From: an uncultured Ignavibacteriaceae bacterium
Lineage (GTDB): Bacteria > Bacteroidota > Ignavibacteria > UBA10030
Reading direction: 5' to 3'
Length of the DNA stretch: 64,000 bases
Assembly: GCA_964581115.1 (NCBI GenBank)
Contig: CAZOMY010000001.1
Coordinates: 325,190-389,189 of the forward strand
A model generated the notes under the pieces. That model did not search any database and was not told the DNA's origin. It saw only the letters and a program-made list of their open reading frames with translations. Of the stretch, positions 32,460 to 53,451 are shown one piece after another. The translations under genes and the position numbers were made by a program. The stretch's first letter is position 1; every line of letters begins with the position of its first letter.

Positions 32460-32469
32460 TGGAGGAGAA

Positions 32470-35460: not shown

Positions 35461-35540
35461 CAAACGATCCGTGGAGTGTGCGACGAGGTGAGACCATTGA
35501 ACGACCCGACAAGGTCGCCAAGGAACAGCCCAACATCAAC

Positions 35541-37920: not shown

Positions 37921-40007
37921 CGGATGATCGCCAGTTTGCCGATCTTCGTGCCCAACGGAGATTCGACGTGATAGATGTAGATGCCGCTCTCAACGAACTG
38001 GCCGAAATCGGTCAGCTGGTCCCATGCAACAATGCCACCGAAGCCATCGGGCACTGTCAGCGTCTTGACAAGGTCTCCTCGGACGGTGTAGATACGGATC
38101 GCGGCAGGATTGGGGATGTTGACGAACTGGATCTCGTCACCCTGCGTCGGCTGGGAGAAGCCTTCGCCGATCACGTACGGGTTGGGGACGACGAGAATGC
38201 CGTCGAGCGATGCCGACGCCGGCAATGTCATTTTGAATGGCGCCGTGGTCCGGTTCGCGAAGATCGACGATTCCAGCGGAGGCACGCGATTGCTGCCGGT
38301 CTCCGGGAAGATGGCCGACGGATTCACCGGCCAGGAGGCTTTGCCCGTGTCGTAGGCCGTCACGGCATAGTAATAGCCGGTCCCGACGTCTCCCGTCGAA
38401 TCGATAAAGGCATAGCGTCCCGTCGTCCCCGTGTAGAATTGCGGATCGCCGCGGGCGACCGTTCCGATCGGTTCCCAGGGACCGATCGGGAGGTACGAAG
38501 AGCGATAGATTCGGTAGCCGGCGAGGTCGAACGTGCCGTCATCGGGGTCGGCCAGTGATTCGGTCTCCGTCCCCCACGAGATCGACGTGGCAGCAAACCC
38601 GGGCCGGTCGCGAAGATACTCGAGCGTGAATGAAGGCGCGGCCGGTGGATCCGGATGGTTCAGCCCGGGCCGGCTGGCGAGCCGCGATTGATCGTACGTG
38701 AACTGCGCTTTGCGGGCCGTCGTCTGGAAGATCGTCGAACCGGCTCCGATGCTCGCCTTCGAGGCTGACGGGTTGACGACGACGCTGTAGTCGACGCCGT
38801 CCACGACCTCGGCTAGAGCGATGACGACCGAGTCACCCGGCGCGAGATTCCACGGGCCGATCGACATCAGCGACCAGACGCGTGTCCTCCGCATTTGCAG
38901 GGTGTCGGAGGACGAAGCGATCGGATTCGTGGCGTTCGCCGGATCACGGAGGACGTCATACCTTGACTCGAACGTCGCCTTGCCAGTAAACGGGCCTCCC
39001 TGATCGATCGACGGACTGCCCCCCGACCACGCGATCTTGTTGACGCGCGAGGTCTGTCCGAACTTGTTCGGACTGGCATAAAGCAATTTGACACCCACAT
39101 GCCCGGGAGCAAGCCATTCGCCGGTCGGGTCGCCGTTCGCGCTGATGGGCCCCTGGGTGCGCGACCGCATGTACTCTTCATCCTCTGGCGTATCAAGATA
39201 ATCGCCCGAGCGGGCCCACATCATGTTGTAGGTCGGGTGGTTCGGGTTTGTGCTCAGGGGACCGAAATGGTACGTGCCACGGGCCCCGGAGGGCAGCGTC
39301 GGAAAGAGGACGGTCCATGCCCGGGAATTGACATGCAAGCCATAGACGGCCAGGGCGTAAAAGTCAAAGAGCGTGTCCTGCACGGCACGCGCCGTGTCGA
39401 GCAGGCGTATCTCAGCAGAGATGTTCTTGAAGCTGTATTCGTGAATGATGTAGTTCTCGTCGCGTTTTGACCCGCTCCATTGATGCGACAGCCGGCTCAC
39501 GCGCAACGGCAGCTGGCGCTCCCGGTCATCGACACGGTTGTAGTTGAGGTTGTACTCCCACGAGGTCTCGATGACCTCCTCCCCCGTCCGTCCCGACGTT
39601 TTCAGGTGGTGGTTCGCTCCCCCCGGATACAGGTGACGGTGCTTCGTCACGATGTACTTTGCACTCGCTTCGTTCGCGATGCTGCTGGCATAGATCGCCC
39701 AGTCCTCGACCGCGAAGACCGAGTCGGCGTCCTTCTTGGCACCGACGTAGAAACCGCCGGTCACGAGATGCGACGGCGGACCACCGATGTCGCGAGCGAT
39801 CCAGGTGTCGTCAAACCCGGGCCAGTCCAAGCCGATGCCCCGGCGTCCCCAGTTGCTGTAGACCGGGCCAACCTTGCCGGCCTGGAGACTGTGCCAAAGC
39901 ATCCCCCGGCGAAAGCTCAGAATGGGAGACTCCACCTGCGCGACGGCATCGGACATCGCAGACGCGGCCAGCAGACCCAAGATCAGATGACGGAGGTTCG
40001 TTTGCAT
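37917..40007 (-). CDS. Secreted protein with a variant T9SS C-terminal sorting domain (type-B-like or divergent type-A), encoded in the SusD position after a TonB-dependent transporter
   Basis: 696 aa. The SPI-type signal peptide is LILGLLAASAMSDAVAQ, with no lipobox cysteine. The C-terminal ~90 aa are VVPNPYV...IRIYTVRGDLVKTL...WDQLTDFGQFVESGIYIYHVE...GTKIGKLAIIR. This matches the T9SS CTD architecture (PN.F/Y, IY..RG.LV, WDG...G..V.SG.Y.Y, G.K.G.L.IIR). The ATG overlaps the TBDT stop. Confidence 0.65.
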   Translation of the reverse strand: MQTNLRHLILGLLAASAMSDAVAQVESPILSFRRGMLWHSLQAGKVGPVYSNWGRRGIGLDWPGFDDTWIARDIGGPPSHLVTGGFYVGAKKDADSVFAVEDWAIYASSIANEASAKYIVTKHRHLYPGGANHHLKTSGRTGEEVIETSWEYNLNYNRVDDRERQLPLRVSRLSHQWSGSKRDENYIIHEYSFKNISAEIRLLDTARAVQDTLFDFYALAVYGLHVNSRAWTVLFPTLPSGARGTYHFGPLSTNPNHPTYNMMWARSGDYLDTPEDEEYMRSRTQGPISANGDPTGEWLAPGHVGVKLLYASPNKFGQTSRVNKIAWSGGSPSIDQGGPFTGKATFESRYDVLRDPANATNPIASSSDTLQMRRTRVWSLMSIGPWNLAPGDSVVIALAEVVDGVDYSVVVNPSASKASIGAGSTIFQTTARKAQFTYDQSRLASRPGLNHPDPPAAPSFTLEYLRDRPGFAATSISWGTETESLADPDDGTFDLAGYRIYRSSYLPIGPWEPIGTVARGDPQFYTGTTGRYAFIDSTGDVGTGYYYAVTAYDTGKASWPVNPSAIFPETGSNRVPPLESSIFANRTTAPFKMTLPASASLDGILVVPNPYVIGEGFSQPTQGDEIQFVNIPNPAAIRIYTVRGDLVKTLTVPDGFGGIVAWDQLTDFGQFVESGIYIYHVESPLGTKIGKLAIIR

Positions 40008-43000
40008 CAGAAGGTGAACCCGACGGAAAGGAAGATCTGGCGTGGGATGTTCCGGTACGCCTTGTACGGCGCCGCGATGTAGCTGAGCCTGAGCGGATCA
40101 TCACCCGGGTCGGCGACCGTGAATCCGCGTTCGACCCAGTTATTCCGGTCCACTTGTCCGTCCATCGGCGTCAGCCATTGGTTGTTGAACAGGTTCATGA
40201 TGCGGGCCCCCAAGACGATGTCGCGGTCCAACAGGCGCAACGTCTTGACGATATTGACGTCGACGCTCGTTTCAAGTGGATACCGCCGGTTGTACAGCAC
40301 GTCCTGCACGTCGAAATCGGTCACGTAGGTGAACGGAAGTCCGGACTGTGCGGCGTACGTGAGGCTGACGGACGTGTTCGCGAACGGCCGGACGCCCGCG
40401 ATCTCGGCTCCTTCGTCGTGACCCAGCCGGTACTGCACGAGCGCCCGGAGCACATGTGTCCGGTCCGACGGCGACAGGAATTCACCCGTGAAGTTGCGCG
40501 ACGCGAAAGCGGTCACGCCCTCCGGGAACTGCTCCTGCGGACCGTAATTCCCTTCCGTCGTCTGCGAGAGGTTGTAGCTGATGCGATAGTGCCATCGCGA
40601 CGGCGAGATGCGCTCGAACGTGATCTCGAGACCGCGCGTCGAACCGAATGCATTGTTCGCGAAGGTCGTATACAGATAGAGCGGAGTATTGTCGGGCAGA
40701 ACGCCCCGCGGCCGGTCGGCGCTCCCCGTCAGGGCCGCCACGCGCAGCAGTCCCACCTGGCTGACGCGGTCGTTGTAATACAAGGCAACATCAAATCGAT
40801 GGTCCTCATTGACGACCTGCTGAACACCGAACTCGTAATTGATCGTCTTCTTGGGCTCGAGGTTCGGATTGCCCCGGCCGGTCCAACCGCTTTGTGTCCG
40901 CTGCGAGAGGCCGTGTGCGAAGATGGGCATCGATGCAAAGTGGCCGTATTGTACCCGGAACGCCGTGTTCTCGCCGATCGGGAACGAAAGACCCAATCGC
41001 GGCATAAGGACCGTACGGGTCGCCGACGGCTCGGTCGACGGGTCGCCGACGGTACTCGGACGAACGTTGTTGCTGAGCGTCCCCTGGTAGAACGGGTTGA
41101 AGAGGTCGACGGCGACGTCCTCCTGGAAATTGTATGCCTCCGCACGCAATCCGATGTTCGCCACGAGCCCTTCGTACTCCATCTTATCCTGGACATACGC
41201 CGACAGGAGCCACGGATAGGCCCTGTAGTATTCGGCAAATCCGGACCGGAAGAGATAGGAATTCGCCTGGAAGGAGGAGTTGACGCCGTTGTTGACCATG
41301 TCCCAGTAGTAGCCCCGGATGCCGACCTTAAAGAGGTTGGTGGACGTGGCCTGATCGGTATAGTCGACCGCGATCGAGGCGTGTTCCGTCCGGTTGTACT
41401 GGTAGTAGTTCGTACTGAAGTTGAAGGGCTCACGGAAATACGACCCGTCCCACCAGACGCCTTGCCGCAGCACCGTCCCCGAGGCGTCGTTCAGGCTGTC
41501 GAGGCGATCGCGAGCCGACTCATAACCGGCCAGGTATTCGTACGGCAGCTCATACGACTCCACTTGGTGTGAGGCCGTGAGTTCGATGAACGAATGCGTA
41601 TCGATCGTGTAGACCCAATTGAAACTCTGGGTAAAGGTCTCTTCCGTCCGGACGGGGTCGGTCTTGATGTAGTACTTCGTCGAGATGCCGGGAGGACTGA
41701 ATGCGAGGCCCGACCAACGGATGTCATCGGAACCCGACCAGATACCGCCGCGATACCGTTGGTACATGGCGAGCAGCTTGAATTTGTGCGCTCGTACCGG
41801 CGTGTAGATGACGTTCGTCAGATAGTTCTGGAACACGAGGTTCTGTTCGGCAGTCGGTAGTCGCGTCGGCGCGTTGCGGTACTCTCCCGAGAAGAAGAAG
41901 CGCAGGAGCTCCGGGTCGCGCGTCAAGGGTCCGCCGAATCCGATCAGATAGCGCGTATACATCCCTTTCCGGTAATCGTAGACGCCGAGCGCATTGTCGT
42001 CGGCGGGCGTATGGTTCTTGAGCCAGATGTCATATGCCCAAGCCGCTTCTTTGAGGACCACGTCGCTCCATGCCGCCGAGTCGGCTCCCGTCGCGGTTCC
42101 GGTCTGGTACATCTTGTTGTACAACGCCGACGCACGCGTGTTGAGGCCCAGCTGGTCGGCGATCAATCGAAGGTCGCGGATCCAGTAGTCGAAATCGCCC
42201 CATCGCTGCCACTCATAGCTGTTCCGGTCGTAGACATACGGGCCGAAGTGATACTGCCCCGGAGGCCGCATCTCAACGCGGAATTCGCCGTTGAAGCGCG
42301 GGCCACCCTCCTTGGAAACCACCTTCACGACGCCCGCCTGCGCGTTGCCGTACTCGGCCGAGAAGCCGCCCGAGATGAGCTGCACCTGCTGGACCGCCAG
42401 CGGGTTGACGTCAAATTTCCACGAGTTGTCCGCCTTGCTGGTTCCGAACGAGCCCGGGGCCGTCGTCGATGCATTGATCTGTTGGACGCCGTTGATCTGG
42501 TAGTTGACCTCGTAGGCCCCCGAGCCGCGCACGCTGTAGTTGCCTTGCGCGTCCTTCTGGAAGCCGGCGACGAGATCGAGCGCACCTCGAATGCCCTCCA
42601 TCGGCGCCGACTTCAGCTGGGTCTCGCTGATGCTCTGGGCGGTCGAGGTCTGATCGCGGATGATCTTCGGCCGCTCAGCCGTCACCACCACTTCCTTCGC
42701 CTCGATGGTGGCGTCTTCCATCTGCAGGTCGATGTTCGTCGTCCGGTCGATGTCGATCTCTACGCTCCGTACAGAGACGCGATTGTATCCAAGCATGGAG
42801 CCGATGACGGTGTACGTTCCCGGAGGAATGTTCAGGATCGTGTATCGACCCTCGAAATCCGTGGCCACGCCGAGCGTCGTTCCTTCGAGGAAGACGTTCG
42901 CTCCGATCAAAGGTTCTCGGGTCCGGGCATCGACGACGCTGCCCGACAGCTTTCCACGCTGGCCCTGGGCTTGCAGCGGCCCGAGGCACACGGCCAGCAC

Positions 43001-43048
43001 GGAAAGGGCGAGAAGAAGGCGGTGTCGCACGGTCAACTCACTTGACAA
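40007..43048 (-). CDS. TonB-dependent transporter, SusC/RagA-like (CarboxypepD_reg N-domain, plug, 22-strand barrel)
   Basis: 1013 aa. The signal peptide is followed by KLSGSVVDARTREPLIGANVFLEGTTLGVATDFEGRYTILNIPPGTYTV, a carboxypeptidase-regulatory-like domain. The plug region and a long barrel follow. The C-terminus is the typical ...SVGFTF. The start is TTG at 43048. Confidence 0.88.
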   Translation of the reverse strand: MSSELTVRHRLLLALSVLAVCLGPLQAQGQRGKLSGSVVDARTREPLIGANVFLEGTTLGVATDFEGRYTILNIPPGTYTVIGSMLGYNRVSVRSVEIDIDRTTNIDLQMEDATIEAKEVVVTAERPKIIRDQTSTAQSISETQLKSAPMEGIRGALDLVAGFQKDAQGNYSVRGSGAYEVNYQINGVQQINASTTAPGSFGTSKADNSWKFDVNPLAVQQVQLISGGFSAEYGNAQAGVVKVVSKEGGPRFNGEFRVEMRPPGQYHFGPYVYDRNSYEWQRWGDFDYWIRDLRLIADQLGLNTRASALYNKMYQTGTATGADSAAWSDVVLKEAAWAYDIWLKNHTPADDNALGVYDYRKGMYTRYLIGFGGPLTRDPELLRFFFSGEYRNAPTRLPTAEQNLVFQNYLTNVIYTPVRAHKFKLLAMYQRYRGGIWSGSDDIRWSGLAFSPPGISTKYYIKTDPVRTEETFTQSFNWVYTIDTHSFIELTASHQVESYELPYEYLAGYESARDRLDSLNDASGTVLRQGVWWDGSYFREPFNFSTNYYQYNRTEHASIAVDYTDQATSTNLFKVGIRGYYWDMVNNGVNSSFQANSYLFRSGFAEYYRAYPWLLSAYVQDKMEYEGLVANIGLRAEAYNFQEDVAVDLFNPFYQGTLSNNVRPSTVGDPSTEPSATRTVLMPRLGLSFPIGENTAFRVQYGHFASMPIFAHGLSQRTQSGWTGRGNPNLEPKKTINYEFGVQQVVNEDHRFDVALYYNDRVSQVGLLRVAALTGSADRPRGVLPDNTPLYLYTTFANNAFGSTRGLEITFERISPSRWHYRISYNLSQTTEGNYGPQEQFPEGVTAFASRNFTGEFLSPSDRTHVLRALVQYRLGHDEGAEIAGVRPFANTSVSLTYAAQSGLPFTYVTDFDVQDVLYNRRYPLETSVDVNIVKTLRLLDRDIVLGARIMNLFNNQWLTPMDGQVDRNNWVERGFTVADPGDDPLRLSYIAAPYKAYRNIPRQIFLSVGFTF

Positions 43049-44456
43049 GCATCATCGTACGCGACAAGACCCCTTCGCGGGTCGTAAGCGTGTACGTATA
43101 GGCGCCGCTGGCCAGGCCGCCGCCGTCAAAGAATCGATGGTGGATCCCGGCCGACAGATCGCCATCCACCAGCGCTGCCACGCGCTGTCCGATGACATTG
43201 AAGACCTCCAGTCGGACCGGACCGGCCGACCGCAACGTGAAGGCGATCATGGTCGTCGGGTTGAACGGATTCGGATAGTTCTGGTACAGCGCGAAGTCCA
43301 TCGGAGACTGGGAGGCCGATTCGACGGTGGTCGCGGTCGTGTACTTGAACTGGAAGACCTTCTGCGCCACCGCATCCGAGACATAGGCGGTCAGTCCGTC
43401 GGGCGTCAATCCGACATCGGTGGGGGCGATCATTGGAGCACCGTTCGGGTCTGCGCTGAAGCCATCCTGATTATTCACCGACGGCAGGTCGAACGTTTCC
43501 ATGGCAAGAATGCCGCCTACGTCGAAGGCCTTCACCCATCGCTTCGTCGAATCGATGCCGGCGACCCAGAGGAGGCCGTCCTTGTCCATCGTGATCCCGT
43601 AGCTCACAGCGCTCGAAAAGGTCAGGAGCCCGGTGGCATCGGAGATCCGCGTCCCGCGGTAGGTACCCATCGCCAGTTGCTTGCCGCCTTGCCAGGCCGT
43701 GATACCCCCGGTCGACGTCGAGGCCGCGGAATTGCGGGACGTATAGAAGACGGTGTTCGTATCGGCGTAGTCGCCGTTGGGACGGAGCGCGATGTCTCGA
43801 ATGACGTCCACGCCCCCCGTTTGTTGGCCGCCGGGGTCGAGTTGCGATTCCGACGACCATGCGCCCTTGATGGGAGCTGTGATCGTATTCGTGAAGTTGT
43901 ACGACCTCACCCGCGGACCTGGCACTCCGGCCCCTGCCGATACACCCGCAAATGCGATCGTGTCGCGCGTCAGTGTCACCCCATGGTGAAACGTACCATG
44001 ACCCGACTGGGACGGCAAATAGTAGCCGAATTTCTGCACCAGCATCGTGTCTCCGGTGGGATAGTAGTACATGACACCCACCGTTGCCGGCTTGGTCCGC
44101 TGATACGGTATCGAGGCATTGATGATGATATCTGAACCGATCGAACCGATCCCACGCAACTGGCCGATGTTGCCGGTCAGCGTGTCGGCGTCGCCGTTGA
44201 GGGTGAAGTCGACCAACTTCTTCATCTCAGAGTCATTCGAATCTGCGTACCAGATGGCGTTTCGAGCAGTGGCATTGGTCGCCGTGGTCGAGATCACGTA
44301 CACTCGGCCGGCCGATGTGACGGTCAACAGATATGGTTGCACGTAGGAGGAATCCGTCGCCGGGAACGGGATCGCCTTGATGAAACGCCACTGCGGCTGA
44401 GCTGACGCTGTCAGCACGCTCAACGCCGTGATCATGACTGTCGCAAGGATCTTCAT
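43038..44456 (-). CDS. Secreted hypothetical protein (probable beta-propeller-like fold) with a type-A T9SS C-terminal domain
   Basis: The start was chosen at the verified ATG 44456 (MKILATVMITALSVLTASAQ, a signal peptide). The C-terminus is YQNYPNPFNPTTMIAF...GAYTYTLTTREGVLSRTMMLVK, a canonical type-A CTD. The 3' end overlaps the TBDT start by 11 nt. Confidence 0.7.
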   Translation of the reverse strand: MKILATVMITALSVLTASAQPQWRFIKAIPFPATDSSYVQPYLLTVTSAGRVYVISTTATNATARNAIWYADSNDSEMKKLVDFTLNGDADTLTGNIGQLRGIGSIGSDIIINASIPYQRTKPATVGVMYYYPTGDTMLVQKFGYYLPSQSGHGTFHHGVTLTRDTIAFAGVSAGAGVPGPRVRSYNFTNTITAPIKGAWSSESQLDPGGQQTGGVDVIRDIALRPNGDYADTNTVFYTSRNSAASTSTGGITAWQGGKQLAMGTYRGTRISDATGLLTFSSAVSYGITMDKDGLLWVAGIDSTKRWVKAFDVGGILAMETFDLPSVNNQDGFSADPNGAPMIAPTDVGLTPDGLTAYVSDAVAQKVFQFKYTTATTVESASQSPMDFALYQNYPNPFNPTTMIAFTLRSAGPVRLEVFNVIGQRVAALVDGDLSAGIHHRFFDGGGLASGAYTYTLTTREGVLSRTMMLVK

Positions 44457-44557
44457 GGCACATCTCCTCTTGGATGTGTCACCACCCGACAACCCCGGTG
44501 GCCGACTGATGGTATGGATGGAGAATGACGACTCGTTGCCAGGACAATGTCTGAGGG

Positions 44558-46534
44558 TCATTTCACGAGCACAACACGCCGAAGCAACCGGCGCCCGCTG
44601 TCCGGGGTCGCATCGGCATCCGACACATGAAGTACGATCAGATACACCCCCGTCGCCAACGATCCGGCCTCCCACGTTCGTCGGTGCATTCCCGCTTCGA
44701 AGGTCCCTTCGGCGATGGTCGCGGCAGCCCGTCCAAGCAGATCATACGCCATGATCCGAACGAACGAACGCCGAGAGACATCGAATCGGATCGTCGTCGT
44801 CGAATTGAACGGGTTGGGAAATGGAGGATGCAACTCGAATGAGCGCGGCGCCTCCGGATCGGAGGTGGACATCGAGGTCGGCGTTCCCGGCGAGAGACGC
44901 CGATTGCGCAACAGCATCAGGTCGTCGCCGACCACGTTCTTCCCCGAGCCGATGCCGGCGTTCGTCAGGGTGGCGATGTGCGCCACGACGCCGCCGGGCA
45001 CATACACATCTCCGAGTTTCGTCCAGCCGGCATTCAAGGCGTTGGACTGGTCAACAACGACCGCCTTCGGTGAAGACGCCGTGTCGTGCAAGAGATAGGT
45101 CGCCGTGGGCGTCAGAGCGTTCAATCCTGTCGGGATGTACGCGTAGAGTTCGTAGATCCCCGGCTCGGGGACCGTCGCCGTGTATCGCATCGTATCGGCA
45201 CCCGCAGCGTCGGCGTAGAAGACCGACCCACCCCACGCAGAGACAAAACTGAGTCCGACGAAACCGGAGCGGATGGCCGCCGAGTCGCGCGCAAACACCG
45301 GCGACGGACGCCAGCCGGACGAACGGTGCGGAACGGGAACCTTCGTAGAGTAGACCTGGTCTCGTAGGGAGAACATGTAACCCGCATCGCGAAGGTCATT
45401 GTAATACCACCACGCATGCCCCGTCAGGCCTGCGTTCCGGCTCGTCTGGACGAGATTCACGCCCTCGCTGATCGAGAAGAGGGTCCCGCTCGGCTTGATG
45501 GCGATACCGGCGTTCACCCTCTGCTGCGATGACGAGGAGAGACCGTACAGCGCCGAAGGGATGTAGTTCTGGAGGATCGATGAGGATTGATACATCTGCA
45601 CTTGGGCGGCGTCAAGCTTGCCCTGACCAAGCCACGCCTTCCAATCCTGCAGGTAACTATCGTAGGCAGGATAGGATCCGAGCCCCGATGCATAGTGGCT
45701 CGGCGCGTTTGAAACAACGACGTTCGGGTTCACCGACTTGATCGAATCGTACACATTGGCGTGGAATGAATTCAGCTGGTCGGCGCGCCAACGCTTCCAC
45801 GCGGCATTGGAGCCGTCCGTCGGGGGCGCGCTGCCGGTGGCCGTGGTATACTTGACGACCGACGCGCTGTCATATCCGAAGTCTAAACCGGGGTATCGGA
45901 TGCGGTCGAGCTCGATGCCGTCAACGTCGTATCGTCGCGCGATCTCTTCATGCAATTCCAGCAGGAATGAGCGCGCTTCGTCGTTGTTGTGCGACAACCA
46001 GTAGAAGTAGATGCCTCCCTCTGGATTGCCGATGAGGTCGTTACCTGAGGCATCCTTGCCAAGCCATGACGGATACCGCCCGAATAAGGGACCCTTGGGG
46101 AACCCGGGAAGAGTATAGCCCGTCCACCAACCGGCAAAGCCGTACTCCATCCACGCTTCGATCTCGAGCCCGTTCCGGTGGGCCTCGGCGATGGCTTCCT
46201 GCAAGATGTCTCGACCACCCGCAGCGGGATCAGTTTCATAGCCGGTCTCTCGGAAGAAGATCTCACTCCGGAACAGCGGGAATCCCCGGCTCCAAGCGTT
46301 GAAATAGACGACGTTGAAGTTGGAGGCGGCGATGGTATCCATCGTCCGGGCGATCTCGGCCTTCGTCCAGAAACTACCGCCCGTCCGGGGCGTCACCCAG
46401 ATACCGCGCAACTCTTGTGCGGCCGACAGGTTCCAGAAGGAAGCGAGACTGAGGATGAGGGCCGTCCACGGGATCCGTTTCAAAGCCGGTCGCGGGGGGA
46501 TGCACTGCTTGGGTGACCGTGGAAAGTGCATCAT
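44558..46534 (-). CDS. Glycoside-hydrolase-like family 10 (GHL10, PF02638/YngK-like) secreted protein with a type-A T9SS C-terminal domain
   Basis: A signal peptide is followed by ELRGIWVTP...NFNVVYFNAWSRGFPLFRS, which forms the GHL10 TIM-barrel start. The EAWMEYGF and DVDGIELDRIRYP motifs are present. The C-terminus is HPPFPNPFNSTTTIRF...GVYLIVLH...RRVVLVK. The ATG was verified. The gene overlaps the ROK regulator stop (ATGA). Confidence 0.75.
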   Translation of the reverse strand: MMHFPRSPKQCIPPRPALKRIPWTALILSLASFWNLSAAQELRGIWVTPRTGGSFWTKAEIARTMDTIAASNFNVVYFNAWSRGFPLFRSEIFFRETGYETDPAAGGRDILQEAIAEAHRNGLEIEAWMEYGFAGWWTGYTLPGFPKGPLFGRYPSWLGKDASGNDLIGNPEGGIYFYWLSHNNDEARSFLLELHEEIARRYDVDGIELDRIRYPGLDFGYDSASVVKYTTATGSAPPTDGSNAAWKRWRADQLNSFHANVYDSIKSVNPNVVVSNAPSHYASGLGSYPAYDSYLQDWKAWLGQGKLDAAQVQMYQSSSILQNYIPSALYGLSSSSQQRVNAGIAIKPSGTLFSISEGVNLVQTSRNAGLTGHAWWYYNDLRDAGYMFSLRDQVYSTKVPVPHRSSGWRPSPVFARDSAAIRSGFVGLSFVSAWGGSVFYADAAGADTMRYTATVPEPGIYELYAYIPTGLNALTPTATYLLHDTASSPKAVVVDQSNALNAGWTKLGDVYVPGGVVAHIATLTNAGIGSGKNVVGDDLMLLRNRRLSPGTPTSMSTSDPEAPRSFELHPPFPNPFNSTTTIRFDVSRRSFVRIMAYDLLGRAAATIAEGTFEAGMHRRTWEAGSLATGVYLIVLHVSDADATPDSGRRLLRRVVLVK

Positions 46535-47757
46535 CCTTTCAGCTCCGGAATGACCCCGTTGACGCGCGCGGGCTTGAAGAGATCATATAGAACCAGGCCG
46601 ACAGCACCCAAAAGAACGCCGTCGCTCCGAAGCTGTGCCGAACGGACCGTCACCGCCTTGGCCGGCTCGGGAAGATGGTCACGGCTCAGCTTCTCCTGGA
46701 CGAGGGCGGCCACCTCCGGCTCGGCAGCGATCGAGCCGCCAAGAACGATCATGGCCGGATTCAGCAAGTTGATGATGCCGATGCAGACGGCGGCCACCGC
46801 CGAGGTGGCTTCCTCGATGATCTTCTTGGCGAGCCCATCTCCGGCTCGAACTGCCCGCACGATCGCCTCGACCGTGGCGACCTCCGGGGAGCCTCCATGC
46901 GATCGATAGGCCATCATGAGCGATGAGTCGCCGAGCAATGCTCCGAGATCATACTGACCGTGATACAGCAACGGGAATCGGTCGGGCCTGGCAAGCTCAT
47001 AACCCACTTCATTGTAGCCGATCTCTCCCGCACTCGAGGTGCGGCCGTGCAATATCTTTCCGTCGACGATGATTCCCGTGCCGATGCCGTCCCCCACCCA
47101 GAAGAAGACCTGGTCGGCGATCTGCCGTCCTGCGCCGAAGAGGTACTCGGCAAGCGTCATGGCTTTGACATCATTCTCGACAAAGACCGGCAGTCCAAGC
47201 GCATGTCCGAACACCGTCTTGAGGTTGGTTCCCTTCCACCCTTTCAGTGTGTCGGCCACTCTCAGAATGCCGGTCTCACGGTCGATGATACCAGGCAATC
47301 CGACACCCAACCCGACGCTTCGGTCAAAGAGGGTTGGAGATTCCTTGCGCCAGGTTTCGAGATGGTCCAGGATACGACCGATCACCGTCTTGGGCGGATC
47401 GCCGGGTGTGATGTCGAACGCATCGCGCTGCAGGATGTTCGCGTTCATGTCGGTCGCGACGATCTGGACAGAACGCATGCGAATGTCGACGCCAAGGACG
47501 GTGCCGGCTCTTGGATTGAAACGCAGGAGCTCACGCTTGCGTCCCCCTCGGCTTGTGGAGGTACCCTCGCCGACCGGCTCAAGGAACCCACCGTCCAGGA
47601 ATCTGCCGACGATCTCGGTGACTGTGGTCTTCGAGAGGGAGCAACGCTGGGAGATCTCGGTGCGCGAGATGGGACTCGAGTCCCGGACGAGTCGGAGAAT
47701 GCGGTACTCGTTCGGTTCGTCGAAGGCGCTTCTTCGTTCGGCCAGTCTACGCCACAC
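46531..47757 (-). CDS. ROK-family transcriptional regulator (NagC/Mlc/XylR-like: wHTH plus sugar-kinase-like sensor domain)
   Basis: The N-terminal wHTH is ILRLVRDSSPISRTEISQRCSLSKTTVTEIVGRFLDGGFL. The ROK body has LGVDI, GWKGTNL, GDGIGTGIIVDG and a C.C-lacking regulator-type tail. The start is GTG at 47757. Confidence 0.8.
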   Translation of the reverse strand: MWRRLAERRSAFDEPNEYRILRLVRDSSPISRTEISQRCSLSKTTVTEIVGRFLDGGFLEPVGEGTSTSRGGRKRELLRFNPRAGTVLGVDIRMRSVQIVATDMNANILQRDAFDITPGDPPKTVIGRILDHLETWRKESPTLFDRSVGLGVGLPGIIDRETGILRVADTLKGWKGTNLKTVFGHALGLPVFVENDVKAMTLAEYLFGAGRQIADQVFFWVGDGIGTGIIVDGKILHGRTSSAGEIGYNEVGYELARPDRFPLLYHGQYDLGALLGDSSLMMAYRSHGGSPEVATVEAIVRAVRAGDGLAKKIIEEATSAVAAVCIGIINLLNPAMIVLGGSIAAEPEVAALVQEKLSRDHLPEPAKAVTVRSAQLRSDGVLLGAVGLVLYDLFKPARVNGVIPELKG

Positions 47758-48225
47758 GGGTAGATCTGCAGGAGAAGTATTGGTTTGTCAACCTGACGAA
47801 CAAACCCAATTTGCCATCCTAACTTCAGTCTGTCAAGTTAATTCCTCTGAGTTCAATTCCCAATCATGAGACAGGTTGCACCTCATGACTGACCGACGCA
47901 GTCCGCCCTATACGATGCGTCCACACAAGTCCCTGCCATATTCCTGACCCAGAGCCACCTCGACGAAATGCCGCTGGATCGAGCCCATCGGCCGAGGAAC
48001 ATCTCGGCCAGGACGACCCCCGCACCACCCTTGCGCGTGGATGAACTCAGCAAGCATTTCTCCACTCCATCGCACTGTTCTCCCCCAGGTCCCCTCCAAG
48101 GATCATTCTCAGATCTGTTCCTCCTTCCCTCCACCTACGGTGCGCAGTGTGAACTTCATTTCTACCAACCGGGGTTCTCCACAGACACTCCTTCTCTTGT
48201 TGCTCTTCCGATCTCCCTCGATGCT
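47758..48225. promoter_or_regulatory. Long (468 bp), lower-GC, CT-rich intergenic region upstream of the ROK-regulator operon
   Basis: There is no convincing ORF with sensible codon bias. The composition differs noticeably from the coding flanks (long CT-rich tracts, TTGTCAACCTGACGAACAA). It presumably carries the promoter/operator of the ROK-GHL10-TonB operon. An ncRNA cannot be excluded. Confidence 0.4.
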
Positions 48226-50448
48226 CTATTGCTCCTCGATGACCATGATCGTGTTCGCTACCGCCCTCTCGCCAGTCCGGTCAGATGGACTGTTCACGAT
48301 CTGACCCTCCACCACCATCGTCGTCGAGCCTCCTCCGTCCAGATTCACCGCATTCCATGCGCCTATCGATCTCAGAAACCTGGCCATCTCCCTGAAATCC
48401 ATTCCGATGCTCGAGGCTTGCCGCCCGTCGACGGTGCCGAGGTAGAGCACCGACGAATCCTCACTCATGCCGACGAATGTCCGTGGATGTCGATCGGTCG
48501 TGAACTTGATACCGATCCCCTCGCGCCGATGCTCTTCGTTGTCGACGTTTCGTCCATCCCTCAGGATACGTCCACCGGCTCCGACGACCTCATCGAGCAT
48601 CTCCTCGTTCTCCCACAGTCGCAACGACACGAGCACGGTATCACCTTTCTGGAGGACCGGTTCGCCCCCCTTCATCGACGACCAGACCCATGAGTCCCCC
48701 GAGATCGCCGCATTGCCGTCCATGCCGACACGGTCGACGATGAACTTCCCCATTCCATTGGGCCTGGGTTCAGCCACGGGCCTCAACACCATCTCGCACG
48801 TTCCTTTGATCGTGCGTGTGCTCGGACCCCAACGAGCATTGTACATCACTGTTCCGGAAGAATCGAGCAGATCGTTGATCGCTCGCACCGGGACCATGAC
48901 GCCCCGCGACGTCGACACGCTGCCCTTGAAACTCATCGGGTCCATCACCGGCCGCCGAGCCGACGTCACTGCGAAATGACTCCGTCTGGACGGTAGTCCG
49001 ACGACCCATGCACCCCGCGATGCCTGGCTCCCGACGGGCCAGTGCGTCTTGAAGGAGAAAAAGTCGGCATTGACCGCACCGATGACCTTTGCTCCTTTCG
49101 CCTCCCGGCGACGCACTTGCTCTGTGGTGGTCCGCAAGCTATCGGCTCTGAACGTCTCAATGCGCACTCCCTTCTGCTTCAGGTCGACCTCGAGGACGTT
49201 CAGCGTGTACGGGCCTTCGAGCGTGATCGAATGGTGACGGACACCCTTGCGCACCATTCGCACGTCGAACCGGTCATTGTGCGCCAGTGGATAGAGAGCG
49301 CGACTCTGGTACACTTCCTTCTTCAAGGTCTGTAGGAGACCCGCATCCCGAAGGTCATTGAAGTACCAGAACGCATGTCCGGTCGGCGTGTATCGGCGGG
49401 CGATCTTCACCAACCGCATAACCTCATTGGAGGTCAAGGCTTTGCCTCCGGGCTTAACCGCCAGTCCCGATGTCGTACGCCTCCGCAGTGAATCCGCAAG
49501 CGGTCGAAGCGCTGAGGTCACCAATCGTTCGAATTCCTCAGGCTGCGCATACATTTGGATCTGGACGAGCTCGACCGAGCCGTCCTTCAACCACTGGCGC
49601 CAGTCCTGGAGGTATTCCTCGTACGAACCGTATTCATCGCCGGTCGTGTAGTGACCCGGCGCGTTCGAAACGACGATGCGGGGGTTGGCCCGCTTGATGC
49701 GCTGAAACGCGATCCGTTGAAACTCAACGATGCGGTCGGCTCGCCACCGCATCCACTCGAGTTCTGAAAAATCCATCGGCGGCTGCGCGCCAGCATGGCC
49801 TTGGGCGTACAACGTCACCGTGGTCGAATCGTATCCGCAGTCGTTCCTGGGATAGCGAATACGGTCGAGCTCGATGCCATCGACGTCGTACTCGTCTGCC
49901 ACCTCTGCGTGAAGGTCGGCCAGGAATGACTGCACCGCCGGCTGACTGTGGGCCATCCAGTAGAATGTTCCGACGTGACCGCTGACATATTCTGCGCTCC
50001 CCTTGGAATCGCGCGCCAGCCATTCAGGATGCCTTCGAAAGATCGGACCCAGCGGTAAGGAGTCGATGCCGTTGCCCGACCACCACCCTACAAAACCGTA
50101 TTCCATCCACGCCTCAATGTGCAGGCCGGCTTCGTGGGCCGCATCGACCGCCTCGGCCAGAATATCCCGTTCGCCGGCCGCAGGGTCCGTAGAAAACCCG
50201 AATTCGCTCTGGAACAACCGGCTCCGCCACAGCGGCCATCCGCGCGACCAGGCCAGGAAGTAAACAGTATTGAAATTCGCGTCGGCCGTCTGCTTCATCG
50301 CGATCCGGATCTCTTCGCGACTCCATAGTCGGGACCCTTCGCGGGGGGTCATCCAGAGGCCTCGCAGTTCTCGTTCCTGGGAATCAGCGACCCCGGCGAT
50401 CAGAACAAAGACGAGTGACAATCGGACGAAACGAGCTGCGGCGTTCAT
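48226..50448 (-). CDS. Fusion: GHL10 (PF02638-like) domain plus a C-terminal phosphodiester glycosidase (NAGPA-like, PF09992) domain; secreted
   Basis: The N-terminal half is a paralog of the 44558..46534 gene (ELRGLWMTP, NFNTVYFLAWSRGWPLWRS, EAWMEYGF, DVDGIELDRIRYP). The C-terminal ~300 aa end in FLRSIGAWNAVNLDGGGSTTMVV, the hallmark of phosphodiester alpha-GlcNAcase-like domains. The start was chosen at the verified ATG 50448 (signal peptide MNAAARFVRLSLVFVLIAGVADSQ). Confidence 0.75.
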   Translation of the reverse strand: MNAAARFVRLSLVFVLIAGVADSQERELRGLWMTPREGSRLWSREEIRIAMKQTADANFNTVYFLAWSRGWPLWRSRLFQSEFGFSTDPAAGERDILAEAVDAAHEAGLHIEAWMEYGFVGWWSGNGIDSLPLGPIFRRHPEWLARDSKGSAEYVSGHVGTFYWMAHSQPAVQSFLADLHAEVADEYDVDGIELDRIRYPRNDCGYDSTTVTLYAQGHAGAQPPMDFSELEWMRWRADRIVEFQRIAFQRIKRANPRIVVSNAPGHYTTGDEYGSYEEYLQDWRQWLKDGSVELVQIQMYAQPEEFERLVTSALRPLADSLRRRTTSGLAVKPGGKALTSNEVMRLVKIARRYTPTGHAFWYFNDLRDAGLLQTLKKEVYQSRALYPLAHNDRFDVRMVRKGVRHHSITLEGPYTLNVLEVDLKQKGVRIETFRADSLRTTTEQVRRREAKGAKVIGAVNADFFSFKTHWPVGSQASRGAWVVGLPSRRSHFAVTSARRPVMDPMSFKGSVSTSRGVMVPVRAINDLLDSSGTVMYNARWGPSTRTIKGTCEMVLRPVAEPRPNGMGKFIVDRVGMDGNAAISGDSWVWSSMKGGEPVLQKGDTVLVSLRLWENEEMLDEVVGAGGRILRDGRNVDNEEHRREGIGIKFTTDRHPRTFVGMSEDSSVLYLGTVDGRQASSIGMDFREMARFLRSIGAWNAVNLDGGGSTTMVVEGQIVNSPSDRTGERAVANTIMVIEEQ

Positions 50449-50574
50449 GGTTGTTCTTCGAATGTGTCGATGCGGTGACGGATGATACGTACAATTGCGA
50501 CCTGGTGAAAGACTGCGGTGGATGAACGGTCGAGGTTGTACATTCAAACAACCCTCTCTTCCAGGAGCCATCCC

Positions 50575-51051
50575 ATGCGAAGACCGTTTGTCTCCCTCTT
50601 CCTCCTCATGTCCATCGCGTCGGCACTGGCCGGCCAACCTGTCCGCTGCACGTCATTCAACGATCTTCTGACGTCGCTCAAGGATGGTTGGAGCGTTCGG
50701 ATGACCATCGAATACGCCAAATGCCGTCTCGTCATCGATTCCGTCGAACAACGGTCTCCTGAGGCGGTCGGTGGAATGACCATCGATACCTACGAGTACT
50801 TCGCCCGAGGAGTCGTCAGAAACGCCAAAGCGTATCTTGCAACATCCGAGACGCACCTTATCAGCCATCCACGTTACGGCTACGTCCTCAATTATGTCCG
50901 CCTCCGGATCTATGAGGACGATGCCGTTGAGATCGTCGCCCGCTATCTGAACCCGTCGTCATATGCCGTTGTGATGGACGAGACCTTCTTCGGAGCGATC
51001 TCCGACGGATCGGACAGCAACGGACTTCATCTCTACCGTTCTCAGCCGTGA
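50575..51051 (+). CDS. Small secreted hypothetical protein (~158 aa)
   Basis: The verified ATG at 50575 is preceded by AGGAG 8 nt upstream. The signal peptide is MRRPFVSLFLLMSIASALAGQ. The stop overlaps the GTG at 51048 of the downstream GH27 reading frame. No family was recognised. Confidence 0.5.
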   Translation: MRRPFVSLFLLMSIASALAGQPVRCTSFNDLLTSLKDGWSVRMTIEYAKCRLVIDSVEQRSPEAVGGMTIDTYEYFARGVVRNAKAYLATSETHLISHPRYGYVLNYVRLRIYEDDAVEIVARYLNPSSYAVVMDETFFGAISDGSDSNGLHLYRSQP

Positions 51052-51074
51052 ATCCCCGTTGGAGGAGCGACAGC

Positions 51075-53348
51075 ATGCGCACTCATTCCGTGACTGCGGC
51101 GATCGTTCTTCTTGCCGCGGGTCTGACAAGCCAGCCTATGACGGTCCCGATCTCCGGACCCTGGCGCTTCTCGCCGGTGGACCACCCCGACCACGCCGGC
51201 GCCGACCTCTCCGATGCCTCGTGGCCGCTGATCCGCACGGGAAGCAGTTGGGAGAGGCAGGGATTTGACAAGCTCGACGGCCATGTGTGGTATCGTACCC
51301 GCGTTGTCATTCCCACAACACTCCGCGACGGGGCAACGATCAAGGAGGCGATCCGATTAGAACTCGGCATGGTCGACGATATCGATCAAACTTTTCTGAA
51401 CGGAGCGCTCATCGGGGTGAATGGGAGCGACATGCCTCCCGGGACACCCGCCGATACCGGGTCGCTGTCTCCGTACGGCTCAAAATGGAACACCGCAAGG
51501 TCATACACCATCCGAATCGATGACCCGCGGATACGCTGGAATGCCGAGAACGTTCTCGCCGTCCGTGTTTATGATGGCGGAGGTCCTGGAGGCCTCTGGT
51601 CGGGACAGCCACACTTCCGCGCCATGACGCTCGCGGATGTGTTGCTGATCGGACATGCGGACGAGCCCTTCCGTGAGATCGACGGAGCCCTCCAGAAGAC
51701 GTTCAACATCCTCAATCGCTCATCATCGGTCCGCATGCATGGCTCGCTCGTCATTCGGGTCGTCGATGGTATCGACGGTGCGGAACTCTCGAGAACGACT
51801 CGGCCGATCGTGCTGGAGCCCGCGACATCGTTGCCGGTGACGACACAGCTGGCACAACCTGAACGATCGACACTCCTCGTGTATCAGGCTTCGGTGGAAG
51901 GATATGGCGAAACCGTTCGGTCCCAAGATGAAGTGCCGTACGTGATGACTCCCAGACCGGGCGACGCTCCCCGCATCAACGGGCCATCAGTCGTCGGCGC
52001 GCGGCCCGGACGACCCTTCGTGTTTCGCATTCCGGCAAGCGGCAAACGTCCGATGCTCTTCGGCGTCGACGGACTTCCAGTCGGCCTTTCTGTGGACAGT
52101 ACAAAAGGCGTTATCGCAGGCCGCACACCAGCGCGGGGTGTCTATGCATTGAAGATCAGCGCACAGAACGCTCACGGGCACGACAACCGCGTTCTAACGC
52201 TGAAGGTGGGCGACGAGCTGGCGCTGACTCCACCGATGGGCTGGAACAGTTGGAACGTTTGGGGTTTGACGGTCGACCAGGAGAAGGTGATCGCCTCGGC
52301 CCGCGTGTTCGAGGAGAAGGGCCTTGCCGATCACGGCTGGTCGTACATCAACATCGATGATGGATGGGAGATCAAGGGAGACGATCCGCGCCCCAAGCGT
52401 CATCCCGACGGCTTGATCGTCGTCAATGAGAAGTTTCCTGACATGAAGGCTCTCGGAGACAGTCTGCACGCACTAGGTCTGAAGTTCGGGATCTATTCGT
52501 CGCCGGGACCGCTGACGTGCGGGGGCTACACGGCCAGTTACGGCTACGAAGCGCACGACGCTCGATCATACGCCGCTTGGGGCATCGACTACCTCAAGTA
52601 CGATTGGTGTTCCTACGACCGCATCGCCAAGGACAGATCGCGGGCTGAGCTGATGAAGCCATACGCCCTGATGCGGAGCAACCTTGACTCCGTTGACCGA
52701 GACATCGTCTACAGCCTGTGTCAATATGGGATGGGTAATGTTTGGGAATGGGGCGCCCAGGTGGGAGGCAACCTGTGGCGCACGACGGGAGACATCGTCG
52801 ACACGTGGGAAAGCATGAGCGGCATCGGTTTCAACCAGGTGGCGAACGCACCCTTTGCCGGTCCAGGCCACTGGAATGACCCGGACATGCTCGTCGTGGG
52901 TTGGGTCGGCTGGGGTCCCCGTCTCCACCCGACGCGACTGACGCCCGATGAACAATACACGCACATCAGCCTCTGGAGCCTTCTGTCAGCCCCCTTATTG
53001 ATCGGTTGCGACCTGACGCGGGTCGATGCGTTCACGCTGAATCTGCTGACGAACGACGAGGTGCTGGCGATCGACCAGGATGCGTTGGGACGTCAGGCGA
53101 CGCCGGTCCTCGTTCGTGACAGCATCCAAATCTGGACGAAGCCGCTGGCCGACGGATCGGAGGCGGTAGGAGTGTTCAACCTTTCCTCGACAGGCCTTCA
53201 GGTCTCTTTCGACCTGCGCGATGTAGGTCTGCCTGAGAGCGTGACGCTAAGGGACCTCTGGCGTCAGCGGCTCGCCGGCACGTTCTCCCGGCGCGCAACA
53301 TTCGAGGTGCCCCGTCACGGGGTCGTACTGTTGAAGTCCGTTCGATGA
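51075..53348 (+). CDS. Glycoside hydrolase family 27 alpha-galactosidase / alpha-N-acetylgalactosaminidase-like enzyme with an N-terminal beta-sandwich and a cadherin-like Ig domain
   Basis: The GH27 core motifs are PPMGWNSWNVWG, YINIDDGWE and LKYDWC. The N-terminal domain resembles a GH2-type sugar-binding jelly roll (DGHVWYRTR). The start was chosen at the verified ATG 51075 (signal MRTHSVTAAIVLLAAGLTSQ), preceded by GGAGGAG 7 nt upstream. The ORF opens at GTG 51048. Confidence 0.85.
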   Translation: MRTHSVTAAIVLLAAGLTSQPMTVPISGPWRFSPVDHPDHAGADLSDASWPLIRTGSSWERQGFDKLDGHVWYRTRVVIPTTLRDGATIKEAIRLELGMVDDIDQTFLNGALIGVNGSDMPPGTPADTGSLSPYGSKWNTARSYTIRIDDPRIRWNAENVLAVRVYDGGGPGGLWSGQPHFRAMTLADVLLIGHADEPFREIDGALQKTFNILNRSSSVRMHGSLVIRVVDGIDGAELSRTTRPIVLEPATSLPVTTQLAQPERSTLLVYQASVEGYGETVRSQDEVPYVMTPRPGDAPRINGPSVVGARPGRPFVFRIPASGKRPMLFGVDGLPVGLSVDSTKGVIAGRTPARGVYALKISAQNAHGHDNRVLTLKVGDELALTPPMGWNSWNVWGLTVDQEKVIASARVFEEKGLADHGWSYINIDDGWEIKGDDPRPKRHPDGLIVVNEKFPDMKALGDSLHALGLKFGIYSSPGPLTCGGYTASYGYEAHDARSYAAWGIDYLKYDWCSYDRIAKDRSRAELMKPYALMRSNLDSVDRDIVYSLCQYGMGNVWEWGAQVGGNLWRTTGDIVDTWESMSGIGFNQVANAPFAGPGHWNDPDMLVVGWVGWGPRLHPTRLTPDEQYTHISLWSLLSAPLLIGCDLTRVDAFTLNLLTNDEVLAIDQDALGRQATPVLVRDSIQIWTKPLADGSEAVGVFNLSSTGLQVSFDLRDVGLPESVTLRDLWRQRLAGTFSRRATFEVPRHGVVLLKSVR

Positions 53349-53451
53349 GTCGACAGGGCATAGCGGAGGCTTCGCTGGCGACTTCTCTCATTCACCCATG
53401 AGCATGACCTGTGGGGTTAAACGAAGCGGGCCGGCGGGCGTCCAATGTTGT

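Follow-up and report, generated by a model that had tools for sequence, protein, structure and literature searches.

What do two paralogous glycosidases of the GHL10 family (PF02638), only one of which is fused to a phosphodiester-glycosidase domain, do on either side of a ROK-family regulator? The question is raised by three genes, A, B and the regulator between them, on a contig of an uncultured Ignavibacteriaceae bacterium of the FCB group (GenBank assembly GCA_964581115.1, contig CAZOMY010000001.1, positions 325,190 to 389,189); the whole stretch of 64,000 nucleotides is referred to here as the window. The strongest result of the analysis is that GHL10 modules and phosphodiester-glycosidase modules of the NAGPA type (PF09992) have been linked at least four separate times. 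Gene B is one of these linkages. It is a new and rare domain-architecture variant of two known, poorly understood families, not a new kind of system. With regard to function, the favoured reading makes A and B the pair of glycosidases in a non-canonical glycan-utilisation locus that lacks SusD and is tied to TonB and to type IX secretion (T9SS), with A outside the cell and B in the periplasm; the chances of this reading being right or wrong are judged to be evenly balanced. Open reading frames at the following positions confirm the arrangement given in the initial annotation, which was made from the sequence alone, including the PF02638 domain in both paralogs and the winged helix-turn-helix and ROK domains between them.

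44558..46534, minus strand: gene A, 658 amino acids (aa; from the open reading frame and Pfam), with signal peptide (residues 1-39), GHL10 TIM barrel (41-~400), Golvesin_C domain (441-541) and putative T9SS type-A C-terminal domain (CTD; 572-658)
46531..47757, minus strand: ROK-family transcriptional regulator, 408 aa, with winged helix-turn-helix (residues 13-68) and ROK (88-389) domains
47760..47850, minus strand: conserved promoter-like box TTGACA-N17-CA(A/T)ATT and then a palindrome, just upstream of the ROK start
47783-47805, minus strand: the 23-bp palindrome, GTTTGTTCGTCAGGTTGACAAAC (form GTTTGTTCGTCAG-N-ACAAAC), a candidate ROK operator
48226..50448, minus strand: gene B, 740 aa from the ATG at 50448 (from the open reading frame, Pfam and an AF2 model)
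49279-50370, within B: GHL10 TIM barrel (residues ~27-390), preceded by a Sec signal peptide (residues 1-23)
48229-49272, within B: NAGPA/DUF2233-type phosphodiester-glycosidase module (residues ~393-740), with the motifs NADFF at 460, HPRT at 654 and DGGGS at 704-708 (nucleotides 48325-48339)

Both halves of B are recognised well above threshold. In Pfam, the GHL10 domain scored 156.9 bits (8.7e-46, cut-off 27.9, residues 27-302) and the NAGPA domain 117.3 bits (1.1e-33, cut-off 25), and stand-alone homologs of the latter align over residues 390-738. The AF2 model (pLDDT 94.5, pTM 0.89) has a (beta/alpha)8 barrel and a separate beta-rich C-domain. In Foldseek searches with this model the barrel matched Cwp19 (5OQ2/5OQ3; E ~3e-20, TMt 0.76) and the GH153 domain of PgaB (TMt 0.70), while the C-domain matched Slr0280 (5H3K, 8e-25), BPSS2145 (6OZD, 1.5e-22), BACOVA_00430 (3OHG, 5.5e-15) and vertebrate NAGPA (6PKU/6PKI, ~1e-13). 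By these matches the C-domain has the catalytic-core fold of the NAGPA family, built of three alpha/beta subdomains. Sequence matches of the C-half in the PDB were likewise 3OHG, 6OZD, 5H3K and vertebrate NAGPA. The DGGGS, RT and PSD motifs of B align with vertebrate NAGPA, and DGGGS with both the guinea-pig NAGPA and the 3OHG loop. The DGGGS loop (human D286-S290) is reported to be invariant and essential for NAGPA catalysis (PMC13474241). Score, fold and the intact DGGGS motif thus place the second half of B with the NAGPA "uncovering enzyme" and the bacterial DUF2233 proteins, as had been claimed from the sequence alone; the module spans residues ~393-740, however, and not just the C-terminal end to which it had been assigned. 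The module is only 14-22% identical to its structural matches, is fused behind a glycosidase barrel where NAGPA has EGF stalks, and contains a ~100-residue insertion relative to the Pfam model, of which profile positions 41-168 alone match.

Aligned over 387 aa, A and B share 47% identity (E = 2e-122), which puts the homology of their GHL10 domains far beyond chance, and the quoted motifs ELRG, NFN.VYF, EAWMEYGF, DGIELDRIRYP and NLDGGGSTTMVV were all found in the sequences. B has a Sec signal, but neither a T9SS tail nor a lipobox was found in it, and it is therefore predicted to be periplasmic. The ATG at 50448, and not the upstream TTG at 50637, is supported as the start of B by the N-termini of orthologs and is favoured by a conserved promoter-like box, TTCAC(C/G)-N16-TATCAT, that lies downstream of the TTG. 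An assembly artefact as the origin of the fusion is ruled out by the same 737-740-aa open reading frame on independent NCBI, JGI and Logan contigs.

The fusion is very rare. Among the best 120 matches to B in a search of 5.8 billion clusters formed at 90% identity, only P0001-P0005 (53-99% identical) aligned over the full length. An exhaustive HMMER search of 1.84 billion representatives at 50% identity returned P0005 as the only full-length match; the other top matches covered either residues ~10-390 or residues ~390-738. Five B-type fusion loci were present in 185,579 species genomes, all of them uncultured "Ignavibacteriaceae" or "Bacteroidetes" metagenome-assembled genomes (MAGs). The combination of PF02638 and PF09992 is not unique to B, since it also occurs, in the same order, in P0163 (806 aa; six clusters of Planctomycetota MAGs) and P0237 (817 aa). 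"Family 10 glycosylhydrolase" is the only annotation that these proteins have, and no study of any of them exists. They differ from B in their length of 806-817 aa, in a ~200-residue middle region and in keeping a DDR motif. Their barrels are about 30% identical to that of B, and their NAGPA domains align with the NAGPA domain of B over the last ~90 residues only.

Neighbour-joining trees (100 bootstraps) place the two paralogs apart. The A-clade was recovered in 100/100 bootstraps and the B-clade in 100/100 (96/100 once a GHL10-only gene from locus L015 was added), and A and B were sisters in 0/100. A recent tandem duplication, for which a phylogeny had been suggested as a check in the initial annotation, is therefore ruled out; the duplication is old, and B is nearer to Planctomycete-type GHL10-Golvesin_C proteins. 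The B barrel falls within the Golvesin_C-bearing radiation, and its C-half groups with stand-alone secreted proteins of ~375-404 aa that are 40-57% identical to it (P0124, P0146 and proteins of loci L016 and L027). It is proposed from these comparisons that B arose by the joining of a Golvesin_C-subfamily GHL10 barrel to a module that is found stand-alone (~375-404 aa, periplasmic) in related bacteria.

A scan of metagenomes identified a sister lineage (L024, L025 and L028) that has the gene order of the window in an unfused state. Its first gene encodes a GHL10-only protein of 400 aa, 56% identical to the N-half of B; the second a secreted 1135-aa NAGPA protein with a T9SS tail, 32% identical to the C-half; the third a ROK protein, 62% identical to that of the window; and the fourth an A-like protein, 47% identical to A. 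L015 matches like this lineage, with the GHL10-only gene alone on a short contig. There is no support for the NAGPA half of B having come from the neighbouring NAGPA gene in the sister lineage, given 32% identity versus 40-57% for the stand-alone type. Since both domains of P0163 and P0237 are distant outgroups to B in the trees, these fusions arose separately. GHL10 and NAGPA modules have thus been brought together at least four times: in the B fusion, in the L024-type adjacency, in P0163 and in P0237. Such independent linkages are Rosetta-stone evidence that both activities serve one shared pathway. The earlier suggestion that the fusion signals a coordinated pathway is strengthened by them, and also by locus L017, in which a stand-alone close relative of the NAGPA half of B adjoins a block of GH38, SSF and Amidohydro_3 genes orthologous to that in the window (GH38 68% identical).

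The architecture of gene A is the usual one in a large subfamily from Ignavibacteria. Of the 120 best relatives of the B barrel among the 5.8 billion clusters, nearly all are GHL10-Golvesin_C proteins that either have a T9SS tail or lack one, and they come from MAGs of Ignavibacteria, Bacteroidota, KSB1 and Planctomycetes. In Pfam, A scored 146.8 bits for GHL10 (1e-42, cut-off 27.9, residues 41-318), matched Golvesin_C at 7e-9 (residues 441-541) and gave no match to NAGPA. Golvesin_C, missed in the initial annotation, has been equated in one paper with a domain resembling carbohydrate-binding modules (CBM6/35/36-like; PMC9166713). The type-A T9SS tail claimed for A is supported by its orthologs, but this copy falls below threshold, with 20.3 bits for Por_Secre_tail (PF18962; 6.7e-4, Pfam cut-off 27) and 18.3 for TIGR04183 (cut-off 23). 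The L024 ortholog reaches 32 bits, most homologs have precomputed PF18962 matches, and the window also encodes a protein of the PorV/PorQ family as well as other cargo with scores over the threshold. By prediction, A is either secreted or bound to the cell surface; the different destinations proposed earlier for the two paralogs, with a probable T9SS tail in A and a signal peptide only in B, are retained. A further member of this GHL10 branch, P0159 (1301 aa), is a fusion of GH18, CUB, GHL10, Ig/PKD and T9SS-tail domains, another hint that the branch works on glycans containing N-acetylhexosamine (HexNAc).

The regulator matched ROK (1.9e-40) and HTH_24 (6.4e-7) in Pfam. Against the NCBIfam equivalogs it scored 145 bits versus 650 for NagC and 143 versus 530 for Mlc. 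The ROK zinc motif (His plus CxCGxxGC) is not present in the window protein, where the region reads GEIGYNEVGYELARPDRFPLLYHGQYDLG and the only cysteines are C39 and C325. The regulator is, to judge from these features, a ROK repressor of NagC architecture only and not NagC; the earlier label "NagC-like" holds for the arrangement of winged helix-turn-helix and ROK domains, but not for the scores or the zinc-cysteine motif. The end of the ROK gene overlaps the start of A by 4 bp, and a 468-bp spacer separates it from B. Syntenic ROK orthologs occur in L001, L013, L024, L025 and L028. The 23-bp palindrome is kept before ROK in 6/6 ROK-bearing loci, once per locus (L001 12506, L013 9157, L024 7361, L025 8743 and L028 10834 in the relatives), in spacers that are otherwise unalignable. 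It is a candidate autoregulatory operator of an operon comprising ROK and A, as suggested by its conservation together with the 4-bp overlap. A second candidate, GGTTGT-N8-ACAACC at 50534, was considered as a shared ROK operator before B and was rejected, as it is not kept in L001 or L013 and came from a post hoc pattern search. The spacer between B and ROK in L001 (12224-12350) contains a run of GGAGTAGTG-like tandem repeats, of which there are none in the window.

B and A head a 22-kb run of co-directional genes that overlap or lie close together, down to position 28082. The genes of this run and those around it are the following.

43038..44462, minus strand: protein of 474 aa, with 27.4 bits for a T9SS type-A tail (TIGR04183) and a weak match to SGL/beta-propeller-like domains; found after A in all related loci
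40007..43048, minus strand: TonB-dependent-type barrel (CarboxypepD_reg, Plug, OMP_b-brl_3) without a SusD partner; kept in L001, L002, L022 and L023
37917..40007, minus strand: secreted 696-aa protein, here called Y, of no Pfam family; 49-62% identical across Ignavibacteria
36988-37920, minus strand: PorV/PorQ-family outer-membrane protein
36257-36991 and 35541-36260, minus strand: two small (~240-aa) beta-barrel-like outer-membrane proteins of no family
34069-35463, minus strand: PF12831 FAD oxidoreductase
32576-34063, minus strand: 495-aa polytopic membrane protein, a putative transporter
30273-32495, minus strand: Hydantoinase_A-like ATPase
28082-30142, minus strand: fusion of DUF4855, an uncharacterised domain, to a NanK-like ROK sugar kinase, 686 aa
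27287-28099, plus strand: NanE
24300-27419, plus strand: cytoplasmic Ams1-like GH38 alpha-mannosidase, no signal peptide
22348-24186, minus strand: SSF symporter
20545-22293, minus strand: Amidohydro_3 protein
50518-51051, divergent from B: small secreted VirK-family (PF06903) gene just upstream of the GH27 gene, with a 4-bp overlap
51048..53348, plus strand, divergent from B: secreted GH27 (Melibiase_2, Melibiase_C and He_PIG)
53398-56331, past the island: OMP_b-brl_3 barrel
56373-58631, past the island: TonB-dependent receptor
59735-63157: 1140-aa Sortilin/BNR-repeat protein with a T9SS tail above threshold

The order of B, ROK, A, the 474-aa cargo protein, the TonB-type barrel, Y and the PorV-like gene is kept in L001, and without ROK in L002, where the PorV-like gene and one further gene follow Y before the locus ends. 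A module of five genes, from the barrel through Y and the PorV/PorQ-family protein to the two small outer-membrane proteins (window 35541-43048; L022 6992-14396; L023 6974-14463), stands beside GHL10 genes in the window, L001, L002, L022 and L023, and the trio that follows Y is also found in L022 and L023. In these Melioribacteraceae-type genomes the module is followed by a different pair of GHL10 genes, one short and one long. B is not an ortholog of the short gene, as the tree rules this out, and the pair was duplicated independently, because its members are mutual sisters in a distant clade with the DDR motif. The AF2 model of Y has a mutarotase-like beta-supersandwich (as in the N-domains of GH94, GH15 and GH65 enzymes), followed by beta-sandwich domains and a CTD-like end; Y is a candidate for a surface glycan-binding partner of the barrel.

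The window shares several features with the polysaccharide utilisation loci of Bacteroidota that combine SusC/SusD with T9SS-secreted enzymes: an enzyme that is secreted or at the surface and has a binding module, a TonB-type barrel in which CarboxypepD_reg and Plug domains occur, an enzyme for the second stage in the periplasm, a regulator and a transporter of its own, and cytoplasmic enzymes for the last steps. Unlike in those loci, the barrel scores 68.5 bits against a SusC cut-off (TIGR04056) of 368.25, and the next gene gave no Pfam or NCBIfam SusD match and encodes the beta-supersandwich protein Y, which joins the PorV/PorQ-family protein and the two small outer-membrane proteins as partners of the barrel. 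The regulator is a ROK repressor, and not a hybrid two-component system or a SusR or ECF sigma factor. The five-gene module may be a SusD-less counterpart of SusC/SusD.

Parts of the remaining island recur elsewhere next to GHL10 or NAGPA genes. The Hydantoinase_A/oxoprolinase-like ATPase, which stands alone without a HyuB partner, is 49% identical to the product of L007 14607-16769, a gene that has a GHL10 pair next to it in the genome of a distant member of Ignavibacteria. Around the P0237 fusion is an amino-sugar cluster that comprises genes for a NagX-like HGSNAT protein, a BadF-type kinase, a SIS protein and an SSF protein. Together with the L017 arrangement, these associations support the view of the window as a catabolic island. 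The DUF4855-NanK-like fusion next to NanE suggests a glycosidase-kinase pair for a disaccharide containing N-acetylmannosamine (ManNAc). The GH27 gene beside B is kept in L001 and probably in L013, and is absent in L002. The PF12831 oxidoreductase is a weak candidate for a conserved partner of the fusion, as the proteins of the window and L005 are only marginally similar. One idea for the hydantoinase-like ATPase is the ATP-dependent ring-opening of a lactam or an anhydro-sugar.

Under the favoured reading, A would be exported to the cell surface, where its CBM-like Golvesin_C domain would bind a polymer and its GHL10 barrel would cut it. The fragments may then be captured by the TonB-type barrel with Y, the PorV/PorQ-like protein and the two small outer-membrane proteins. 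In the periplasm, B would act on the imported fragments as a bifunctional enzyme: its NAGPA module may cleave the glycosidic C-O bond of an alpha-HexNAc-1-phosphodiester and so uncap or detach a phosphate-linked sugar, and its GHL10 barrel may cleave the glycan backbone. Products would enter the cytoplasm through the 495-aa membrane protein, the SSF symporter or both, for processing by GH38, the DUF4855-ROK kinase, NanE and the hydantoinase-like ATPase. The ROK repressor would autoregulate the operon that begins with its own gene and A through the conserved palindrome. A HexNAc-1-phosphodiester is most likely part of the substrate, for which cell-wall glycopolymers linked through HexNAc-1-phosphate and phosphorylated mannans are candidates; the mannan or teichoic-acid-like polymer decorated with N-acetylglucosamine (GlcNAc)-phosphate that was named in the initial annotation is, as a specific substrate, a conjecture.

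Several observations weigh against this scheme. To our knowledge, the GHL10 subfamily of A and B has no member with a measured activity. Cwp19 and DigH, the GHL10 enzymes that have been characterised, attack the peptidoglycan of their own cell and not food, and their specificity is not transferable to A and B, which have a single Asp before Arg (ELDR) in place of the DD pair and EYGF in place of the NPY of DigH. The outer-membrane module and a GHL10 pair occur together across the class with variable neighbours, which fits a housekeeping role in the envelope equally well, and some stand-alone NAGPA relatives have alr, RlpA-like and SLT genes as neighbours. The bacterial DUF2233 protein assayed by Das et al. 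in 2013 reportedly had ~1% of the activity of the human enzyme on GlcNAc-P-Man. Finally, the proposal that the fusion is under the ROK regulator stands for the ROK-A operon by virtue of the overlap and the palindrome, but control of B by ROK is not supported, since no equivalent palindrome was found before B in the loci compared, and ROK is missing from L002, a genome with the B-A pair.

A serious rival is that GHL10 and NAGPA proteins remodel the bacterium's own envelope as DigH and Cwp19 do, although this is considered unlikely. The barrel would cut peptidoglycan glycan strands that are free of peptides, a polymer held on muramic acid by a HexNAc-1-phosphate would be released by the NAGPA module, and the outer-membrane module would serve the biogenesis of the envelope or of the T9SS. 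The known biochemistry of the family agrees with such a role. Cwp19 of Clostridioides difficile acts as a lytic transglycosylase on peptidoglycan (PMC6016235). DigH/YddW of E. coli, a member of PF02638 (6e-136 in Pfam), hydrolyses denuded peptidoglycan glycans (PMC12288456). With these two enzymes GHL10 is not entirely uncharacterised, which corrects the statement in the initial annotation that the family is poorly characterised; a peptidoglycan or cell-wall reading was not considered there. Other members of this GHL10 branch carry SLH domains with WG repeats or PG_binding_1; the stand-alone NAGPA proteins P0126 and P0133 are encoded among alanine racemase, RlpA-like DPBB and SLT genes; the module of barrel, Y, PorV/Q, two outer-membrane proteins and GHL10 is core to Ignavibacteria, with the class-wide identity of Y given above; and a NamZ gene lies near the module in L022.

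A and B share with Cwp19 and DigH the Pfam family, the barrel (modelled for B), an invariant Asp (D195 in B) where strand beta-4 ends and the general plan of a secreted or envelope protein with an accessory targeting or binding domain. They are only about 20% identical to these enzymes, however, and the accessory domains are Golvesin_C and a T9SS tail in A and NAGPA in B, in place of CWB2 repeats or a lipoprotein anchor. The DD motif is altered in both: the end of beta-4 reads DGIEL-D-R in A and B, DGV(Q/H)F-DD in DigH and Cwp19, and DDR in P0163 and P0237. The D195/D196 pair of Cwp19 has been proposed to be catalytic or to stabilise an intermediate, and which Asp A and B keep hangs on a one-residue alignment choice. 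The T9SS tail and CBM-like domain in A and in hundreds of homologs suggest action beyond the outer membrane, away from the cell's own peptidoglycan, and the locus looks catabolic, as a repressor responsive to sugar occurs in it together with an importer of the TonB type, a transporter and enzymes of catabolism. Moreover, we know of no Gram-negative-type peptidoglycan with polymers linked through GlcNAc-1-phosphate.

Two further explanations accept the glycan-utilisation locus favoured here and name its substrate. The proposal carried over from the initial annotation, a phosphorylated mannan or high-mannose glycan with HexNAc-1-P-6-Man (or Man-1-P) diesters that NAGPA would uncover for GH38 and GH27 to finish, is improbable as a specific assignment. 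It would involve the canonical NAGPA substrate, and it draws on the L017 block with its 68% identical GH38, on a second GH38 gene near the module in L022 and on GH27 beside B in L001 and probably L013. The GH38 enzyme of the window is cytoplasmic and encoded 21 kb from B, though, and GH27 is absent from L002. The cluster has no recognisable endo-mannanase, GH92, GH76 or GH125 enzyme or sugar phosphatase, and mannan is not a known substrate of any GHL10 enzyme. GlcNAc-P-Man is also rare in the environment.

The other explanation, that the substrate is debris of Gram-positive cell walls, is decidedly doubtful. In this case the GlcNAc-alpha-1-P-6-MurNAc (N-acetylmuramic acid) linkage that holds teichoic acids and secondary cell-wall polymers would be the target of the NAGPA half, the glycan strands thereby exposed would be cut by the GHL10 barrels, and ManNAc from ManNAc-beta-1,4-GlcNAc linkage units would pass to the ROK kinase and NanE. 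Such a route would combine the known GHL10 activities on peptidoglycan with the NAGPA chemistry of GlcNAc-1-phosphodiester cleavage. It could also account for NanE and the NanK-like ROK kinase fused to DUF4855 in the same island, and is consistent with the Amidohydro_3 gene there, the amino-sugar cluster around P0237, the GH18-CUB-GHL10 fusion in P0159, and the NamZ gene and a D-amino-acid enzyme near the module in L022. Left unexplained are GH27 and the recurrent association with GH38 alpha-mannosidase. The catalytic motif of A and B is unlike those of DigH and Cwp19, and no amidase or peptidase is evident in the cluster. Furthermore, the GlcNAc of the linkage unit is substituted at O4, while the known uncovering enzyme removes terminal GlcNAc.

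Processing of the bacterium's own exopolysaccharide or biofilm matrix, in the manner of PgaB, PelA and Sph3, is very improbable: the resemblance of the B barrel to the GH153 domain of PgaB, a Wza-like Poly_export gene divergent to B in L002 and the COG label of the NAGPA-like protein EpsL, which relates it to exopolysaccharide biosynthesis, are set against the lack of glycosyltransferase, polymerase or flippase genes in the window cluster, the presence of an import barrel and catabolic genes, and the Poly_export neighbour not being kept in the window or L001.

A bolder extension of the favoured reading is that the recurrent, independent joining of GHL10 to NAGPA marks a dedicated but undescribed two-step chemistry on phosphodiester-linked glycopolymers, run in Ignavibacteria by the conserved SusD-less import module of the outer membrane. 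For example, the GlcNAc-1-phosphate anchor of teichoic acids or secondary polymers to peptidoglycan could be cut first and the exposed strands degraded afterwards. This extension is speculative and would come as a surprise. If true, no "linkage-unit hydrolase" would have been known before B, and a new CAZy family, its environmental substrate defined, would be made up of the A-type GHL10 enzymes. Large as the GHL10 family and that of the bacterial NAGPA/DUF2233 proteins are, their biochemistry is almost absent and amounts to two peptidoglycan enzymes and one doubtful starch report for the former and one weak in vitro activity for the latter. A literature search returned nothing useful on CAZy reclassification of GHL10, on UPF0748/YngK/COG1649, on DUF4855 or on PF12831. 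The repeated fusion and the split-gene state in the sister lineage narrow the search for a substrate to glycans with sugar-1-phosphodiesters, and B offers a compact bifunctional protein for expression. The analysis also exposes a conserved, unannotated outer-membrane module of Ignavibacteria, possibly the SusC/SusD counterpart of the group. Current understanding is not overturned by these results; their value is as a lead for enzyme discovery.

A subgroup of stand-alone NAGPA-like genes, those for P0126 and P0133, lies in a conserved housekeeping block of other Ignavibacteria-like genomes (L018-L021). The block comprises genes for ATP synthase beta/epsilon, alanine racemase, a ManC-like nucleotidyltransferase, an RlpA-like DPBB protein, RpiB, NAGPA and an SLT lytic transglycosylase. 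Between the NAGPA and SLT genes are an M24 peptidase gene in L018 and L019 and a gene for an unassigned 447-aa protein in L020 and L021. This setting hints at an envelope role for that NAGPA subgroup.

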